Shown here piece after piece: positions 16,649 through 25,866 of a stretch of 37,267 nt of DNA. The stretch comes from a candidate division WOR-3 bacterium (GTDB lineage: Bacteria; Hydrothermota; Tepidihabitantia; Tepidihabitantales; DTDR01), in the NCBI GenBank assembly GCA_039801885.1, contig JBDRVN010000012.1, forward strand, positions 1 to 37,267, given 5' to 3'. Below the pieces are notes generated by a model that worked only from the letters and a program-made list of their open reading frames with translations, made no database searches and was not told where the DNA came from. The position numbers and the translations under genes are program-made. Each line of letters opens with the position of its first letter. Positions within the stretch are counted from its first letter, which is position 1.

Positions 16649-18288
16649 TTTCCTCCCCTAATTAAATTTTTTTTAATTTCATAAATTTTTGCTAAAATTT
16701 TTTCATCCACTTCTCCAGAAAGTTGTTTATTATAATAATATTCATATAAATATCTGTTTAATAATCGTTTGAAATCTTCTTCTTTCATATTACTAATTAA
16801 TACTTTAGGCAAAAAAGATAGTAAAGCACATTTCTTTTTAAGTTCTTCACTTTTAATTTCTTCTAATATCAACCCAATATTTATCTTTTCTTTATCTTTA
16901 AAATCTTTGATTATTTCTATTAATTCTTTTATCTCCCCTGAAAAGATTTCTAATGGATATTCTTCAATAGCGGAAAAATATTTTGGATAGGTTAATAAAA
17001 CATTGATTATTTGGTCTTCTAATCTCTTTATTTCCACATTAAAAATAAAAATATTCTTCTCTCTTAAAAGGTTCAAAACTTGTTCTTTATTAAAATGAAA
17101 AACTTCACTTATCTTATTTAAATATAGCTCTTTTAAAGGTAAATCGCAAGTAAAATTTATAATTTCCAAAAGTTGTTTTAAAATCTTTCTTTTTTCAGAA
17201 ATTGTTTTGGGATCAGAAATTTTTAGATAAAAATCAATGAAGTCGTAAGAACGGTCAATAATTTTTTTAAGTTCTTCCATTCCTTTTTTGTTTACATATT
17301 CATCAGGGTCGTAACCATCGGGAAGCAAAGTAATTAATGGGTTTATTCCAACTTTTAGGGTGATTTCAATTGCCCTTTTTGTTGCTTCTTTTCCAGCATC
17401 GTCACCATCAAATAAAATTATTATTTCTTCGCTATATTTTTTTAATAATCTTGCTTGGTCAATTGTGAAACCAGTGCCTAAGGGTGCGACTAAATTTTTA
17501 ATTCCCTTATCAAAAAGAGAAAGTAAATCAAAGTAGCCTTCTACCAAGATTGGTTTGTTTTTTGTTAGAAATTGGCTTGTTTGATAAAGACCGTAGAGGT
17601 TTTCTCCTTTTTTAAAGATTACTGTCTCTGGTGAGTTAAGATATTTCGGTTCGGTTTCATCTAATACCCTCCCACCAAAACCTATAACCTTCCCACGGCG
17701 GTTAAAAATTGGGAAAATAATACGATTAAAAAACCATTCCCGAATTTCTTCTTTTTTAGAAGCTAAACCGCTTTCAATTAACGACTCCTCGGAATAACCT
17801 CTTTTTTTAAGCTTTTTAATTAAAAGGTTTCCACCGGGAGCGTAACCCAATTGAAATTCTTTTATTGTCGTTAATGATAATTTTCTTTTTTCGGTTAAAT
17901 AATTTAAAACTTGTGAATGAATAAAAAGTTGTTCCTGATAAAAATCACTTGCAAATTTAATAATTTCATAGATTTCTTGGTTTTTTTTCTCTACTTTCTC
18001 TTCGGTGAAACTTATTCCTAATTTTTCTGCTAAGAATTTTACTGCTTCAGGAAATCCCATTTTTTCATATTTCATTATAAAATGGATAACATTGCCACTT
18101 TCTTTACAACCAAAACAATGAAACAGTTGCTGTGAAGGGTTAACATAAAAAGAAGGTTTAGTATCACGATGAAAAGGGCATAAGGCTCGGTAATAATTAC
18201 CAACTTTTTTTAAAGGAAGATAAGAATTGATTAACTCTACAATATCGCAATTTTCTAAAATTTTTTCAATAATCTCTCTTTTCACCAT
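16645..18288 (-). CDS. dnaG: DNA primase
   Basis: Zn finger CPFH...[38 protein letters not shown]. Confidence 0.97.
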
Positions 18289-20305
18289 TTTCTTTTTTCA
18301 GTAATTTTACCTCATCTCTGGGAAGAGTGATCAAAAATTTTTCAGTTATAATTTTCAAAAGATTATTTTTAATTTCCACAATTGTGCCAATCTTTTTTAA
18401 TCTTTTAATATATACTTTATCACCAATTTTTAAATCTCTTTCTTCATCAAAAAAATACAGGAGATTTTTTTCTTCCTGAATTTCTGATAAATTAATTTCG
18501 ATAAATTTTTTAGCTTCTCTTATTGCTTCCTTTTTTTGGGTTTTAATTATTTTTAGGAAATTCTCCAGTTCTTTTCGAGCATTTAAAAAGAAATTTTCTT
18601 TTTCTTTTAAGAATTCTTTTTGATAATTTTTAAAAATTGTGAGTAATTCTTTGTTTTTTTCTTCGTAATCTTTTATCAACTTTTCTAATCTTTTTTCTTT
18701 ATCCTTTAATTCTTCTATTTTTTCTCGATATTTTTTTATTTCTTTTTCCCATTCACTCAATTTTGTTTTTAAAGTGAGAAAATCAGTTTTTAAATATTGG
18801 TTGGCTCTTTCAATTATTTCTTTTTCCAAACCAATTGTTTGAGCAATTTCTAAGGCACTAGATTGGCCCGGAATACCGATAATTAATCGATAGGTTGGTT
18901 TTTCTTTATATTCCATAGCAGCATTTAAAATTTTCGATGAGTTATGGGCAAAGATTTTTAAGCGGGGTGAATGAGTAGTAACAAAAACAAAAGAGTTCTT
19001 TTTAAATAGTTCTTCTAAAATTGCTATTGCTAATGCATCACCTTCTTCCGGAGAAGTATCCCTTCCTAACTCATCTAACAAAATTAATGAATTGGCATCT
19101 GCTTTTTCCAGAAATTCTTTTATTTTTTTTATATGAACATGAAAAGAGGACAATCCTCTTTCTAAAGACTGTTCATCTCCGATATCAGCAAAAATTTTTT
19201 TAAAAAATGGGATTTTACTGTTTATTCCTACCGGCGGAAATATTCCTGATTGAGTTAATAGCGAGATCATTCCAATTGTTTTTAAAGTTGCTGTTTTGCC
19301 ACCGGCATTTGGTCCAGAGATTAAAAGAATCTTTATCTCCTTTGGTAATTGAAAAGAGAGAGGTGTTACTTCTTTTTTTATTTTTAATAGAAGAGGATGG
19401 TAGGCAGAATTTATTTGAAATTCGTTATTTTCGGAAATTTCAATTCTTTGACAATGATACTCTTCAGTAAATTTTGCTTTGGCATTTAAAGCGTCTAAAT
19501 AAGCAATTGTTTCGCAGGTTTTATTTATATTGGGATATCTTTTAACCACTTCTTCCGTTAATTCTTTTAAAATTTTTTTCTTTTCTTCTGCTAATTGACG
19601 ATTAATTTTTATAAGTGAGTTGTTTTCTTCCACAATCTCTAAAGGTTCACAAAAAGCAGTTTTTTCTGTTTCGGAGTAATCGTGAACAATTCCTGGAAAT
19701 TTGCTAATTAAATTGGTTTTAATTGGTAGCACATATCGCTCTCCACACAAAGTATAATTGTTAATTGCTAAAAAATCTCTTTTTTCTTTAATTATTTTTT
19801 TTAATTTATTAATAATTTTCTCTCTTAAATTTTTTATTTCAGAAAGAATTTTTAAAAGTTGGGGAAAAGATTCGTATTTAATCTCGCCATCTTCTTCAAT
19901 TTTCTCTTCAATCATTGATATCAATTGTTGATAATTATTTAGATTATTTAAGTAAAATACGAAGGAGGAAGGAAGATTTTTTAAGGGGAAATATTTTTTA
20001 ATTTTTTCTACATCTTTTAAGAAGTTTTTTATCAAAATTAAGATTTTTCCATCAAAATAATAACCTTTTTTTAGCTCTTCCCTTAGGAACTCTGCCAAAT
20101 TAAAAAAACTTCGGTAGGAGGGTCTTTCTTTTAGAGAGAGATAATATTCCAAATGGCTGAATTCCTTTTTAATTGTCTCTATTTCAGAAGAAGGTAAAGA
20201 ATTTAAAACCAATTCCTTGCCTAAAGTAGTTTCGCAATAATCAGCAATTAAACTAAGCACTTTTTGATATTCTAAATTTAAAAGTGTTTCTTTATCGCAA
20301 ATCAC
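18266..20305 (-). CDS. mutS2: MutS2 (RqcU)-family ATPase lacking the C-terminal Smr domain; start inferred at GTG 20305
   Basis: ETLLNLEY N-terminus, GIVHDYS, HPLL, SGPNAGGKT, DIGDEQS, LSSF, LLDELG, TTH, PGQSSA, coiled coil, KOW-like LKIGDKVYI. Confidence 0.9.
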   Translation of the reverse strand: MICDKETLLNLEYQKVLSLIADYCETTLGKELVLNSLPSSEIETIKKEFSHLEYYLSLKERPSYRSFFNLAEFLREELKKGYYFDGKILILIKNFLKDVEKIKKYFPLKNLPSSFVFYLNNLNNYQQLISMIEEKIEEDGEIKYESFPQLLKILSEIKNLREKIINKLKKIIKEKRDFLAINNYTLCGERYVLPIKTNLISKFPGIVHDYSETEKTAFCEPLEIVEENNSLIKINRQLAEEKKKILKELTEEVVKRYPNINKTCETIAYLDALNAKAKFTEEYHCQRIEISENNEFQINSAYHPLLLKIKKEVTPLSFQLPKEIKILLISGPNAGGKTATLKTIGMISLLTQSGIFPPVGINSKIPFFKKIFADIGDEQSLERGLSSFHVHIKKIKEFLEKADANSLILLDELGRDTSPEEGDALAIAILEELFKKNSFVFVTTHSPRLKIFAHNSSKILNAAMEYKEKPTYRLIIGIPGQSSALEIAQTIGLEKEIIERANQYLKTDFLTLKTKLSEWEKEIKKYREKIEELKDKEKRLEKLIKDYEEKNKELLTIFKNYQKEFLKEKENFFLNARKELENFLKIIKTQKKEAIREAKKFIEINLSEIQEEKNLLYFFDEERDLKIGDKVYIKRLKKIGTIVEIKNNLLKIITEKFLITLPRDEVKLLKKENGEKRDY

Positions 20306-20306
20306 T

Positions 20307-20498
20307 TTACATCTGTTGTATCTTTTTTCGCCATCTTCGTGTTGCTTCAGCCAGGCGTTTCTTTTTCTTTTCGCTGGGTTTTTCATAATATTCTTTTCTT
20401 TTAATATCTTGTAGAATCCCAGCTTTTTCCACTGCCCGGCGGAAACGGCGAATAAAGCTTTCAAAAGGTTCGCCATCCCGAACTTCAATTTTGGTCAT
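20307..20498 (-). CDS. rpsU: 30S ribosomal protein S21
   Basis: EPFESFIRRFRR...KEYYEKPSEKKK; SD GGGGGTG upstream. Confidence 0.97.
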   Translation of the reverse strand: MTKIEVRDGEPFESFIRRFRRAVEKAGILQDIKRKEYYEKPSEKKKKRLAEATRRWRKKIQQM

Positions 20499-20524
20499 TT
20501 TTTCACCCCCTTTTACTGTGAAAA

Positions 20525-21262
20525 TTAAATATTATTGAATTCATATAAAATTAAACTGATTGCGACAATCCCTGCGGTTTCGCTTCTTAATCTTCTTTTT
20601 CCTAGGGAAAAAAATTGTGCTCCTTCTTCTTCGGCCATTTTTACTTCTTTTATAGTAAAACCGCCTTCCGGACCAATTATTAATAGGATGGTTTTAATAT
20701 TTTTTTTAATAATATTAGCTAATTTAGTTTCGCTATCTTCATAGGCTAAAAGGACTAAATCGAAAGAGGAGAAATTATTAATTAATTCCTTAAAAGTTAA
20801 TGGTTTATAAATTTTCGGTAAAAGAGTACCAGCCGATGTTTTTAACGAAGCGATAGAAATTTTTTTTAATCTTTTTAATTTATTTTCATTTATCTTAACT
20901 ACCGTATTTTGAAAATAAACCGGAATAAAACCACTAATTCCTAATTCGGTTGCCTTTCCTAACATTATTTCTGTATTTTCGCCTTTTAACGGTGAGCTTG
21001 CTAACGTAATTTTAATATCTGGCTCTCTTGGTAAAAATTTTTTACTCAAAACTTCTCCAGTTAATTTCTCTTTTTCGACACCGGTTATTAGAAGCTCATA
21101 TTCATAACCATAACCGTCGGTTAATTTTATTTTATCACCAACTTTGTGTCTCATTACCTTTAAAATATGTTTTGCTTCGTCATTTTTTATTATTATATTT
21201 TCACCAATTTCTAATCTCTGGGGATAATAATAAATTTCGCAGGATAAAAAATCTCTCCTCAT
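20525..21262 (-). CDS. rsmE: 16S rRNA m3U1498 methyltransferase
   Basis: [31 protein letters not shown]. Confidence 0.95.
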
Positions 21263-22407
21263 TTGGTTTCTTTAGGACGTCTTGGCGGTGGCGGGGGTTC
21301 GGTAGATTTTTTCTTTAATTCTTCCAATAATTTTTTTTCTTCTTCGGAAAGAAAACTGGGAAAAAAGATTTTAATTTTTACTAATAAATCACCACAGGAA
21401 TTAGATGTCTTTAATCCTGATTCTTTAATTCTAATTATTTGTCCATCTTGGATACCAGGATTAATTTTAATTTTTTTATTGCCTCTCAAAGTGGGTACTT
21501 CAATTTCACCACCAATTAAAGCAGTAGTATAATGAATAGGAATTTCTACCATTAAATCAAGCCTCTTTCTTAAAAAAAGAGGATGAGGAATTTCTTCAAA
21601 TTCAATAATTACATCTCCTTTCCCATCTTCGCCATAATGACCTTCGCCCTTTAAAATTAAGTAATTATTTTCGATAATTTCCTTAGGAATTTTAATTTTA
21701 AATATTTTTCTTTTTTTTAGTCGGCCGCTTCCTCCACAAACCTTACAGGCTTCTTTAATTACCTTTCCAGTTCCGCCACAATTATGACAAGTAGTAATTT
21801 TGATTATCTGGCTAAAGGCACTTCTTTGAATCTGTTGAATTTCTCCTTTACCTTTACAAATCGGACAGGTAGTTTTACCTTTACCGCCAATTCCTTGGCA
21901 CTCGGGACATTTTTCATAACGTTCTAATTCAAAAGTTTTTTCCTTGCTTTCAGCAATATCTTCTAAGGTTAATTTCATTTTTACTACTATATTGCCGCCA
22001 ACAACTTTTCTTTTTCTTTCTTTTGTTGGTCTTTCCCAAATATCAAAAATAGGTTCTTCTTCAAAAAACTTTTTAAGAAATTCAAAGGGGTCAAAAGTAC
22101 CTCCAAAAATATCTCGCCATTCATTGGTATGAGTAAAATGTTCCCAGGTAAAACCACTTGGTCCAAATTTCTGGGATACTCCTTCATGACCATAAAGGTC
22201 GTACAATCTTCTTTTTTCATCGTCTAATAGAACTTCATAGGCTTCGGAGATTTCCTTGAATTTTTCTTCGGCTTCTTTTCGATTGTTAGGATTCATATCT
22301 GGATGGTATTTTTTGGCTAAACGGCGATAAGCCTGTTTAATTTCTTCTTTAGTAGCGTTTCGTGATACTCCTAAAATTTCGTAATAATCTTTCTTCGTTT
22401 TTTCCAT
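21259..22407 (-). CDS. dnaJ: Chaperone DnaJ
   Basis: J domain with HPD, G/F-like region, four CxxCxGxG repeats, C-terminal domain. Confidence 0.96.
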
Positions 22408-22470
22408 AATAAAGAAATAACTACAATCTCTTATTTATAAATAATTAAAATTTTTTTGAAAACCTTTTCG

Positions 22471-22923
22471 TTAACTAACCTTTATTCTTTTTGCTTTTAA
22501 TAATGGTTGGGCAGCTTCTTCTAACTCTTTTATCGTTATGTTAATTATTCTTTTGTCTTTTTTGATTAATGCTTTCTTTAATCTTTCTAACCTGTCTTCG
22601 ATTTGTTTTCTTTCCTTATTACTTAAAGAGCCACCATATTTTTTTAATTTATTTTGAATAGTAAAATACTTAATTCGACCACGCATCAGCGGTTTTTTAA
22701 GTTCTTTGAGAGCGGTAATCAACTCTTTACTTGCGAATCTCCTTAAAATCCTTTCTTCAATTTGTCGCACTCTTTCGCGGGTGATATTAAGTTTATTGCC
22801 AATTGCCTGCAAAGTGTGAGGAATTTCGCCGCCCAAGCCATAACGTAACCGAATAACTTCTTCTTCTCTTTTTGTTAATGATTTAAGTATTTTTTCCAGT
22901 TTTCCATCTAAATTACTTAACAT
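22471..22923 (-). CDS. Sigma70 region-4 domain fused to a DnaK C-terminal lid-like domain
   Basis: SD AAGGAG. aa 5-63 align with RpoD region 4 of this window; aa 88-144 align without gaps with DnaK aa 538-594 of this window. Confidence 0.85.
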   Translation of the reverse strand: MLSNLDGKLEKILKSLTKREEEVIRLRYGLGGEIPHTLQAIGNKLNITRERVRQIEERILRRFASKELITALKELKKPLMRGRIKYFTIQNKLKKYGGSLSNKERKQIEDRLERLKKALIKKDKRIINITIKELEEAAQPLLKAKRIKVS

Positions 22924-22935
22924 AGTTTCTCCTTT

Positions 22936-24798
22936 TTAAGATCTATTATCTTCATCATAAACTTCATAATCTTTTTTATCTTTTTCTTCTTTTTTAGCTT
23001 GAGCCTGTTGATACATTGCTTCGGCTAAACGATGACTAACTTTTTGTAATTCCTCAATTGCTCTTTCTATTTCTTCCTTATTATCTCCTTTCATTACTTC
23101 CTTTAATCGATTTAATTTTTCTTCTATCTCCCTTTTATCATTTTCGGAAATTTTATCCCCAAACTCTTTTAAATTTTTTTCAATAGTATAAGCTAAGGTA
23201 TCGGCTTTATTTCTGGTTTCAACCAATTCTTTTTTATGTTGATCTTCTTCTCGATATATCTCAGCTTCCTTAACCATTCTTTCAATTTCTTCTTTTGTCA
23301 AACCAGAAGAAGGGATAACTCTCATACTTTGTTCTTTTTTGGTAGCTAAATCTCGAGCGGTGACATGTAAAATTCCGTCAGCATCGATATCAAAGATAAC
23401 TTCGATTTGGGGAACTCCTCGCGGAGCCGGAGGAATACCATGAAGTTCAAATCTTCCTAAACTTTTATTATCAGCGGCCATCGGCCTTTCACCTTGTAAA
23501 ATATGAATTGTGACTGCTGTTTGATTATCTTCGGCGGTTGTAAAGATTTGACTCTTTCTTGTGGGAATAGTGGTGTTTCTTTCAATAATTTTAGTGAAAA
23601 CACCGCCAAGCGTTTCAATGCCTAAGGAAAGGGGAGTAACATCCAAAAGGACAATATCTTTAATTTCACCGGCAAGAATTGCTCCTTGGATAGCAGCACC
23701 AATTGCCACTACCTCATCAGGATTAATTCCTTTGTGTGGTTCTTTACCAAAGAAATCTTTTACTACTTCCTGAACTCGCGGCATTCTCGTTTGGCCACCG
23801 ACTAAAATTACTTCGTCAATATCTTCCGGCCGTAATTTAGCATCGGCTAAGCAATTTTTAACCGGTTCCAAAGTTTTTTGAATTAAATCCTCCACCATCG
23901 CTTCTAAACGCGCACGAGTCAGTTTTAATTCTAAATGGATAGGTCCTCTTTCCGGGTCAGAATAAATGAAAGGTAAACTTATTAAGGTTTCATATTTGGT
24001 AGAAAGTTCTCTTTTTGCTTTTTCTGCCGCCTCTCTAATTCTTTGTAAGGCAGTCCGGTCCCTAGAAAGATCAATTTTAAATTCTTTTTTTGCTTCTTCT
24101 AATATCCATTGAACAATTCTGGCGTCAAAATCATCGCCGCCTAAATGAGTGTTTCCATTAGTGGCAATAACTTCAAAGACCCCTTCACCAATTTCTAAAA
24201 TAGAAATATCAAAAGTACCTCCACCTAAATCATAAACAGCAATTTTTTCATTTTTTTTCTTATCTAAACCATAAGCAAGGGAAGCGGCAGTTGGTTCATT
24301 AATAATCCTTAATACTTCTAAGCCGGCAATCTTGCCAGCATCCTTGGTAGCCTGTCTTTGGGCATCATTAAAATAAGCAGGAACAGTAATAACCGCTTTA
24401 TCGATCTTTTCGCCAAGATATTGTTCAGCAGCATTTTTTAAATATTCTAAAATTAGTGCAGAAATTTGGGGTGGTGAATACTTTTTCTCTTCTACTTCCA
24501 CCCAAGCATCACCATTATCTGCCGGAACCACTTTATAAGGAACCAGTTTTATCTCTTCGGTAACTTCGGAGTATTTCCTTCCCATAAAACGTTTTATAGA
24601 ATAAATTGTTTTATCAGGATTGATTATTGCCTGCCTTTTCGCAAGGGTGCCAACCAGTCTTTCTTTGCCAAAAGCAACCACCGAGGGAGTGGTTCTTTCT
24701 CCTTCCGGGTTGGGAATAACTACTGTTTGACCCTTTTCCATCACTGCCACAACAGAAAAGGTTGTTCCTAAATCTATGCCAATTACTCTTTTTCCCAT
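22936..24798 (-). CDS. dnaK: Chaperone DnaK (Hsp70)
   Basis: [49 protein letters not shown]. Confidence 0.98.
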
Positions 24799-24836
24799 CT
24801 TACCTCCTTTATCCTTTCTACATTTATTAGACTCAT

Positions 24837-25304
24837 TTAATCCTCCAAAGGATTTTGTTTTTCTTTGCTCACGATTACTTGCGCTGGTTTTAAAATATAG
24901 TCCTTGTAAAGATAGCCTTTACTAACTTCTTCCACAATTTTGTTAGGTGGAACCTTATTTGTTTCCACATAACCAATAGCCTCAGCATATTTTGGATCAA
25001 AGTCTTTTTCTAATAAAGAATATTCTTTTAATCCGTATTTTTCTAAAACATTTCTCATTTGATTATAGATTATTTCCAAACCTCTCTTTAAACTTTGAAA
25101 ATCATTATTTAATTGAGAATGAAATAGAGCCCGATTGAAATTTTCTAAAATTGGGATGATATCAACAAAAAAGTCTTTCAAGCTTAATTCCTTAGCAATT
25201 GAAACTTCTCTTTCCTTCCTTTTCCGAAAATTATCAAATTCGGCTAACAAACGTACATAACTATCTTTTAATAAAGTTACCGGTCCGACTTTTTTCTTTT
25301 CCAT
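24837..25304 (-). CDS. grpE: Nucleotide exchange factor GrpE (start likely ATG 25304)
   Basis: [37 protein letters not shown]. The upstream TTG start overlaps the promoter. Confidence 0.92.
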
Positions 25305-25330
25305 CTTGACTTTTATTATTTTAATATTAT

Positions 25331-25359
25331 AATATACCAAAAAATTTATGATTTGTCAA
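25331..25359 (-). promoter_or_regulatory. sigma70 promoter of the grpE-dnaK cluster
   Basis: TTGACA-N17-TATATT with extended TG; overlaps a plus-strand TTGACT-N16-TATAAT (25306-25333). Confidence 0.65.
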
Positions 25360-25383
25360 CAAGTAAAGATTTAAGGAGGAGAT

Positions 25384-25866
25384 ATGGAAATAAAGATAAT
25401 TGAAATAAAAAAACCGGTGGAAGTGAATGTTATTTTAGGACAAAGCCATTTTATTAAAACCGTTGAAGACTTATATGAAATAATTGTTAATACCAATCCA
25501 AGTGCGAAATTCGGGATTGCCTTTTGCGAATCTTCTGGACCTTGTTTAGTGCGTGCCGAAGGTAATGATGAGGATTTGAAAAATTTAGCAATTGAGAATG
25601 CTTTAAACATTAGTGCTGGTCATTCCTTTATAATTTTTTTAAAGGATGCTTACCCAATAAATATTTTAAACGGAATAAAACAGGTTTGTGAGGTCTGTTC
25701 AATCTATGCGGCAACAGCTAATCCTTTAAAAGTGATTGTAGTTGATGATGGAGAGGGCCGAGGAATATTAGGAGTGATTGATGGTTTGAAACCTAAGGGC
25801 GTAGAAAAAAAAGAAGATATTGAAAAAAGAAAAAAATTTTTGCGAGATATTAAATATAAATTATGA
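25384..25866 (+). CDS. Adenosine-specific kinase family protein (DUF355)
   Basis: [55 protein letters not shown]. Confidence 0.88.

Follow-up and report, generated by a model that had tools for sequence, protein, structure and literature searches.

A genus-restricted protein joining sigma-factor region 4 to a recharged DnaK lid in a WOR-3 chaperone operon: a candidate regulator

The stretch of DNA analysed here (the window) comprises 37,267 nucleotides of contig JBDRVN010000012.1, from assembly GCA_039801885.1 of a candidate division WOR-3 bacterium whose genome is 1.56 Mb in size, has 31% G+C and is 91% complete. Between dnaK and dnaJ it carries a gene for a protein of 150 amino acids, here called X. 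Judged by sequence comparison, X is a genus-specific new gene in which ~80 codons from the 3′ end of a primary-sigma gene are followed by ~65 codons of a dnaK lid, and it represents a new domain architecture made from two well-known parts. An earlier note on this DNA, made from the letters alone, had proposed such a chimera of region 4 and DnaK lid helices, and Pfam, hhalign and an AlphaFold2 model now bear it out. X probably acts as a DNA- or RNA polymerase-binding regulator of the chaperone operon that encodes it.

The N-terminal half is recognized directly as region 4 of a sigma factor. Sigma70_r4 (PF04545) matches amino acids 13–62 of X with E = 3.7e-14 and 52.4 bits against a Pfam cut-off of 24.1, and the NCBIfam RpoD models match X through their final ~70 positions only, with region 4 as the sole match (amino acids 3–75). 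By BLASTP, X 2–79 aligns with residues 449–527 of the 529-residue RpoD of the same genome, with 35 of 79 positions identical (44%, E = 1e-16); the earlier note's estimate of about 31/60 identities by eye was of the right order, and the BLASTP count replaces it. Since the alignment reaches RpoD position 527 of 529, the sigma copy extends to the very end of RpoD. The 11 residues of the recognition helix (X 46–56) are exactly those of RpoD 494–504, with synonymous differences in 5 of the 11 codons, just as had been claimed. This helix, which we take to hold the residues that touch −35 DNA, is invariant in 8/8 X orthologues and in 13 of the order's 14 RpoDs; the remaining one has S for N. Twenty-four region-4 columns that are invariant across the 14 RpoDs are likewise retained in 8/8 X. 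Neither Pfam nor NCBIfam found region 2 or 3 in X, and because it lacks region 2, X cannot act as a sigma factor, as the earlier note had also argued; X holds a bona fide sigma-4 domain yet is no sigma factor.

The C-terminal half matches the lid of DnaK in one consistent register. X 87–144 aligns without gaps to residues 537–594 of the DnaK encoded next to it, with 19 of 58 positions identical (BLASTP, E = 2e-7), in the same register in which the earlier note had counted 19/57. A profile of 9 X sequences compared with one of 10 DnaKs of the order (hhalign) placed X 86–142 on DnaK 536–592, again gapless, with 95.7% probability and E = 8.9e-9. The Pfam HSP70 model aligns its positions 540–595 of 599 to X 88–143, in the same register and below threshold (11.7 vs. 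20.6 bits, E = 0.074). When the whole genome was searched with X in six frames at E ≤ 10, four places only were found, namely X, rpoD, one alternative sigma gene and the 3′ end of dnaK. On these comparisons, the lid match exceeds chance expectation. The nucleotide-binding domain and beta-sandwich of Hsp70 were not found in X, the HSP70 profile match being restricted to 540–595; X carries a bona fide Hsp70 lid copy yet is no chaperone.

Whereas the hydrophobic core columns of the lid are common to X and DnaK, the charge is inverted. The net charge of X 87–144 is +7 to +10 in 8/8 orthologues, in contrast to −1 to −3 in the same columns of 14/14 DnaKs, which is in line with the acidic-to-basic swaps pointed out earlier, and four columns are acidic in every DnaK and basic in every X. 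DnaK D533, which is Asp in 14/14 DnaKs, is Arg in 8/8 X (R83 in X); in the structural register of the superposition described below, D533 corresponds to the lid-latch Asp540 of E. coli DnaK. The lid-derived half contains 26 K/R versus 10 D/E, and X as a whole has a net charge of +21 in 150 amino acids, its charge per residue lying at the 99th percentile of 1278 crude open reading frames (ORFs) of the genome.

An AlphaFold2 model of X, built on a 9-row alignment, has a mean pLDDT of 84.3 and a pTM of 0.75, with pLDDT 88–93 over amino acids 81–140. Its sigma-domain helices (5–13, 18–28, 38–45 and 49–63) are followed by one long helix (66–99), inside which the junction between the source genes (amino acids 80–86) falls, and then by helices 102–121, 124–137 and 139–143. 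Superposition with VIA-align fitted amino acids 5–66 to domain 4 of S. aureus SigA (4g6d_A) with a root mean square deviation (rmsd) of 1.8 Å over 62 residues (Z 9.7), and amino acids 72–147 to E. coli DnaK 529–604 (4jnf), a range that presumably spans most of lid helix B plus helices C to E, with an rmsd of 1.4 Å over 76 residues (Z 10.4). Another E. coli DnaK structure (4b9q_A) was fitted at 1.2 Å over 73 residues, and the range across fits was 1.2–1.5 Å. In the model, the C-terminal half has the lid fold, a long helix plus a three-helix bundle, as the earlier note had anticipated. Generic three-helix bundles also occur among the structural matches (SCIN, Z 8.4), and helical bundles commonly give Z values below about 13; therefore, the lid assignment draws on the fold combined with the in-register sequence homology. 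For P0007, the most divergent orthologue, folding from the single sequence recovered the lid helices at pLDDT 78–90, with a low overall pLDDT of 64. The top Foldseek rows for the model were chimeras of SigA region 4 and the beta-flap tip (8cwt, 7kuf and others), a fold search of BFVD returned region-4 matches only, and the ESM Atlas gave no usable match to X. A complex prediction for full-length DnaK with X, run without controls, gave scores of 0.00 and 0.30 (mark 0.32) and carries no weight either way.

X is under strong purifying selection, on par with grpE or rpoD. The ratio of nonsynonymous to synonymous substitution (dN/dS), pooled over the 15 pairs of the six genomes of its genus (Nei-Gojobori; pS ~0.6 throughout), was 0.062 for the whole of X (pS 0.60), comprising 0.025 for amino acids 1–64, 0.020 for 65–86 and 0.103 for 87–150. 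The corresponding values were 0.025 for dnaK, 0.039 for grpE, 0.058 for rpoD, 0.087 for dnaJ and 0.140 for rsmE. A Biopython-based run gave the same dN/dS for whole X, with the short segments unusable owing to saturated pairs. The locus was also recovered from another sample within that study, on a 1983-nt contig that covers 22361–24343 with 5 differences and bridges dnaJ, X, dnaK and the internal junction of X. Seven X clusters (149–151 amino acids, the query's included) come from several sources, and X DNA is present in hot-spring metagenomes. The earlier note's view of a gene under selection is upheld by the overall dN/dS of 0.06 and by per-domain values far from 1, and the contig spans the junctions.

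In distribution, X is confined to a single genus. It is intact and syntenic in 6/6 genomes of one WOR-3 genus, with full-length copies in all five genomes other than the source, and a whole-genome search found it in 0/35 genomes drawn from four further families within the order; phylum-wide, 6 of 272 genomes and 1 of 110 genera have it. The order grpE-dnaK-dnaJ-rsmE-mutS2-...-rpoD is kept in 13/13 loci compared, among which the five same-genus loci carry X. In the remaining eight, from four other families, dnaJ follows dnaK after 7–335 bp with no ORF between them, one spacer containing a run of N. Because the same-genus loci have X and the sister-family loci are without it, X was, as read from these loci, inserted along the stem lineage of a single genus. 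Reading of the long dnaK-dnaJ spacers of genomes G016 (235 bp) and G013 (335 bp, with the run of N) revealed no remnants of X. By eye, these two spacers (L035:10244-10478 and L036:6821-7155, respectively) resemble an acidic dnaK C-terminal tail behind an early stop.

Searches of much larger collections agree with this restriction. A word-index search of 5.8 billion proteins yielded 508 candidates, 161 of them matching at E ≤ 0.001. Only seven of these matches (the query P0001 and P0002–P0007; 149–151 amino acids, 78–91% identical) cover at least 95% of X, and all other listed matches cover at most 62% and correspond to region 4 of sigma factors. Amino acids 76–150 alone, searched against proteins of 82–263 amino acids, gave six matches, every one an X. 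When 1.84 billion representatives were searched exhaustively with a profile, 32,873 proteins matched at E ≤ 0.001. Just two of these reached E ≤ 1e-30: the cluster to which X belongs and a 938-residue protein with 11 region-4 stretches. Among the best 150 of these profile matches, none extends past X amino acid 112, and the ten of them that were inspected are tandem region-4 proteins or have region 4 with unrelated tails. A second protein with both halves was thus not found in the 1.84 billion representative proteins, and no description of such a protein was found in open-access text. The earlier note had known of no described protein with this architecture, and the databases searched and the open-access literature yield none; homologues with both domains and the same synteny occur in 6/6 genomes of the genus.

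In a region-4 tree of 29 rows, the X branch has 2.27 changes per column, the distant sigma outgroups being poor and on very long branches, and in a lid tree of 22 rows X again sits on long branches (3.03 + 2.3 changes per column). X emerges from an unresolved polytomy of the order's RpoDs, not as sister to the genes of its own genus, and its identity to RpoD (51–58%) and to the DnaK lid (33–38%) is alike across 14 genomes. By these measures, X is no closer to the rpoD and dnaK of its own genus than to those of sister families. It may have originated by local duplication with fast early divergence or by import from elsewhere, and the trees fit both.

The features of the locus are collected in Table 1. 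The stretch of 12 nt between the dnaK stop and the ATG of X, including the AAGGAG to which the earlier note had drawn attention, is invariant in 6/6 genomes of the genus; the X-dnaJ spacer is 63 nt long and AT-rich. A consensus scan of 20400–25500 found no promoter-like or terminator-like sites between dnaK, X and dnaJ. Given the 12-nt spacer, the gene's own Shine-Dalgarno sequence and the lack of an internal promoter or terminator, X would be an internal gene of the chaperone operon, co-transcribed from the grpE promoter. In two runs labelled metatranscriptomic, the matching pieces were short (shares 0.07 and 0.05) and left 22471–22923 almost uncovered. The grpE start is the ATG at 25304 (MEKKK...), which is kept in 6/6 genomes of the genus, whereas the TTG of the ORF list (25340) falls within the promoter.

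Table 1. Coordinates of X, its parts, its neighbours and the operon promoter in the window
Feature	Position	Strand	Basis or remark
Gene X (P0001)	22471..22923	-	ATG start, 150 aa; ORF list and translation
AAGGAG ribosome-binding site between dnaK and X (12-nt spacer)	22929..22934	-	Sequence; invariant in 6/6 genus genomes
dnaK, upstream neighbour of X	Stop codon 22936-22938; gene 22936..24798	-	Pfam HSP70, E 3.2e-264
dnaJ, downstream neighbour of X	21259..22407	-	Pfam DnaJ + CXXCXGXG + DnaJ_C
grpE, first operon gene	24837..25304	-	Pfam GrpE, E 6.8e-40
rsmE, beyond dnaJ	20525-21262	-	Part of the same gene run
rpoD, 529 aa	15059..16648	-	On the same strand as X, 5.8 kb downstream; the N-terminal half of X is most closely related to it
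Sigma-derived part of X, aa 1-79 (region 4.1/4.2 and tail)	22687..22923	-	BLASTP vs. own RpoD
Sigma70_r4 Pfam span, X aa 13-62	22738-22887	-	E 3.7e-14
Recognition helix of region 4.2, X aa 46-56	22756..22788	-	Identical to own RpoD
Junction between source genes, X aa 80-86, basic	22666..22686	-	RpoD similarity stops at aa 79; DnaK similarity begins at aa 86-87
Lid-derived part of X, aa 87-144 (end of long helix and three-helix bundle)	22492..22665	-	BLASTP vs. own DnaK
Sigma-A-type promoter of the grpE-dnaK-X-dnaJ operon	25331..25359	-	TTGACA, 17 nt, TG-TATATT

Between rsmE and rpoD, the minus strand carries rpsU and mutS2. The rpsU gene (ribosomal protein S21, 63 amino acids; 20307-20498) overlaps a long TTG-started mutS2 ORF (18266-20488), whose true start is probably further downstream, the orthologues having 674–705 amino acids.

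The grpE promoter, with 11/12 hexamer matches, is the only strong minus-strand site that the scan of 20400–25500 detected. Its perfect TTGACA sits in a 13-nt block that shows no variation in 6/6 genomes of the genus, all of which also have TTGTTGACAAATC and the −10 region unchanged. A genome search with TTGTTGACAAATC was uninformative because 119 places match at ≤2 mismatches in a genome of 31% G+C. The 79-bp intergenic region between grpE and an adenosine-kinase-like gene contains, at 25306-25359, two divergent consensus-like promoters with overlapping −10 regions, the plus-strand one, of the adenosine-kinase-like gene, reading TTGACT-16-TATAAT; the six genomes do not vary in either −35 hexamer or in the −10 region that the two promoters share. 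No CIRCE- or HAIR-like inverted-repeat operator was seen at the grpE promoter, and no TTGACA was found by eye upstream of clpB; groES directly follows another ORF.

Known heat-shock regulators were sought in 41 genomes of the order (G000–G040), and HrcA (PF01628) and CtsR (PF05848) were found in 0/41 each, as was RpoH above the TIGR02392 cut-off. X has no homology to HrcA, HspR or CtsR at E ≤ 1 in a Pfam scan. A separate candidate stress sigma factor is encoded directly after htrA/degP in genome G000 (contig C2, ~58014-58808; L040:1378-2172). It is group-3-like, has 264 amino acids, and its best NCBIfam partial matches are RpoS and RpoH, all far below cut-offs; at E ≤ 1e-20, similar frames of 266–296 amino acids occur in nine more genomes, which belong to families f1, f3 and f4, with none in f2 and f5.

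With a complete region 4, an untouched recognition helix, regions 1–3 gone and a basic partner domain, X looks first like a −35-reading DNA binder. We therefore favor, tentatively and at somewhat below an even chance, the reading that X is an operon-encoded regulator that reads −35-type TTGACA elements, for example at its own grpE promoter. The free helix-turn-helix of region 4 would bind −35-type TTGACA, while the basic, recharged lid helices would supply contacts to the DNA backbone or allow self-association. X might in this way block sigma-A promoters or adjust their activity, also at the perfect TTGACA upstream of grpE, and the outcome would be feedback on chaperone synthesis, as with the operon-encoded HrcA and HspR elsewhere. 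Consistent with this reading, region 4 is complete to the RpoD end, scores above the Pfam cut-off and has its recognition helix unchanged; X has acquired a net charge of +21 while the DnaK lid stays acidic in the same genomes; the consensus TTGACA at the grpE promoter is invariant across the genus; the position of X parallels that of regulators encoded in dnaK operons; HrcA, CtsR and above-cut-off RpoH were not found in the 41 genomes of the order; and dN/dS is low in all three X segments.

Several points weigh on the other side. An isolated sigma region 4 is a weak binder of −35 DNA. Sixteen RpoD-invariant region-4 columns are fixed to a different residue in 8/8 X, among them an RpoD-invariant Glu that is Gln at X39. 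Conservation around the −35 hexamer is expected of any strong sigma-A promoter, and an operator or repeat separate from the promoter hexamers was not found at the grpE promoter. The position of X in the operon would imply chaperone-like abundance rather than the level of a classical repressor. Further, the eight loci of four sister families have the same operon behind TTGAC(A/G)AA-type promoters without X. Since these families run the same operon and promoter type without it, X is, on this comparison, dispensable for basic control, which counts also against the stronger proposal that X stands in for HrcA, HspR or sigma-32. That stronger proposal faces a second difficulty, in that, by its sequence, the lid copy is no simple DnaK mimic, because its acidic character is lost, including the invariant Asp replaced by Arg at D533. 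We consider it unlikely that region 4 occupies the −35 element or the polymerase flap while DnaK (or DnaJ) engages the lid copy, such that free chaperone would set sigma-A transcription of the operon; X would in that case be a new class of bacterial heat-shock feedback regulator, made from parts of the two machineries that it links.

Alternative to reading DNA, X might be a region-4 mimic or adaptor that takes the place of sigma-A region 4 on the beta-flap tip, either weakening −35-dependent initiation globally or recruiting the lid domain, possibly with DnaK, to the polymerase. It would then work in the manner of flap-occupying phage factors such as T4 gp33 and AsiA. The N-terminal half of X is of the group-1 sigma type, its best Foldseek rows are SigA region 4/beta-flap-tip chimeras, the 24 RpoD-invariant region-4 columns are retained, and operon-level expression would suit a stoichiometric competitor. 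However, 16 RpoD-invariant columns are altered in all X, and the second half is so basic that nucleic acid seems a likelier partner than a protein surface. We regard docking on the flap, in either form, as rather unlikely.

X might also be a general small basic nucleic-acid-binding protein, of the nucleoid or of RNA, that lies in the operon by chance and has no specific heat-shock role. A net charge of +21 in 150 amino acids, at the 99th percentile, is compatible with such a protein, and so are the high expected expression and the thermophilic habitat suggested by the hot-spring metagenomes. By contrast, the recognition helix is kept letter for letter under a dN/dS of 0.025, which is more than unspecific binding needs, and this explanation is in our view a doubtful one.

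Another alternative places X in the chaperone cycle itself, where the lid domain would contact DnaK or DnaJ, and free chaperone would set the activity of X, or X would modulate the DnaK cycle. In favor of such a partnership are the homology of amino acids 86–142 to the lid of the neighbouring DnaK, the location of X between dnaK and dnaJ in 6/6 genomes, and a charge opposite to that of the acidic DnaK lid, which might permit electrostatic pairing. However, the Asp of 14/14 DnaKs at D533 is Arg in 8/8 X, and homology shows origin and need not mean partnership. We also know of no binding partner that a lid fragment has of its own. We regard a chaperone-cycle partner as improbable.

Two further explanations can be dealt with briefly. 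X could in principle be the region-4 subunit of a split sigma factor of the SigO-RsoA type, since it has region 4 alone and two-subunit sigma factors exist (PMC10141391). This idea fails in its one testable feature, because 5/5 region-2 ORFs of the genome bear a region 4 of their own (four of five by PF04545, while the fifth covers positions 3–163 of a 165-position ECF model); moreover, the region 4 of X is of primary-sigma type. With the genome 91% complete, a partner could be unassembled, and we consider a split sigma factor very improbable. Finally, although X is young and lineage-restricted and its halves resemble neighbouring genes, a non-functional relic or an assembly or annotation artefact is refuted for practical purposes by its intactness in 6/6 genomes, its seven clusters, its dN/dS of 0.062 and the bridging contig from another sample.

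X offers a clean, datable case of gene birth, in which fragments of two essential neighbouring gene types, rpoD and dnaK, were fused, the source copies being possibly local or imported. If X regulates the chaperone operon, it would represent a heat-shock control principle in a lineage where HrcA, CtsR and RpoH were not found, and a promoter-reading module turned into a free regulator. Even without a regulatory role, it is an Hsp70 lid repurposed through charge inversion. Should it prove to be a regulator engaged by DnaK, it would add a further solution beside sigma-32 titration, HrcA/GroEL and HspR/DnaK, one whose birth by domain capture is still legible. X is small and helical, and should therefore express easily and be open to in vitro work.

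Compared with known systems, X is closest in its two parts to the proteins from which they derive. It shares with region 4 (PF04545) of group-1 RpoD/SigA 44% identity over 79 amino acids, a fold that superposes at 1.8 Å, the recognition helix and the reach to the C-terminus, whereas it stands alone without regions 1–3, has 16 columns changed and is fused to a foreign domain. With the lid (SBD-alpha) of DnaK/Hsp70 it shares a gapless alignment, a fit of 1.2–1.5 Å and the hydrophobic core columns, but it is without the ATPase domain and beta-sandwich, its charge is inverted and Asp533 has become Arg.

Stand-alone region-4 proteins resemble X in being small, such as phage BFVD entries of 94–136 amino acids annotated as Sigma70_r4 only. 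Tandem region-4 proteins were observed in metagenomes (P0121, P0133, P0148, P0204 and P0260), one of 938 amino acids with 11 copies and others of 150–180 amino acids with two. Unlike X, none of these stand-alone or tandem proteins bears a lid-like half, and their functions are uncharacterised. In SigO-RsoA of B. subtilis, sigma domains are split over separate polypeptides (PMC10141391); X differs in that no region-2-only partner was found in its genome (5/5 region-2 ORFs with region 4) and in its descent from a primary sigma factor.

In terms of regulatory logic, the nearest counterparts are HspR and HrcA, repressors that are encoded inside dnaK operons and are controlled in their activity by DnaK or GroEL. 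X would resemble them as a small protein of DNA-binding type encoded in a grpE-dnaK-dnaJ operon, and the autoregulatory logic proposed for X is analogous to theirs, whereas X is unrelated to them in sequence and no CIRCE- or HAIR-like operator was seen at its promoter. For HspR, DnaK is reported to act as corepressor, in work cited in PMC2687793. In Chlamydia, a lineage-specific protein is reported in a preprint (PMC12154930) to feed back on HrcA, an example of how heat-shock circuits can carry additions restricted to one lineage.

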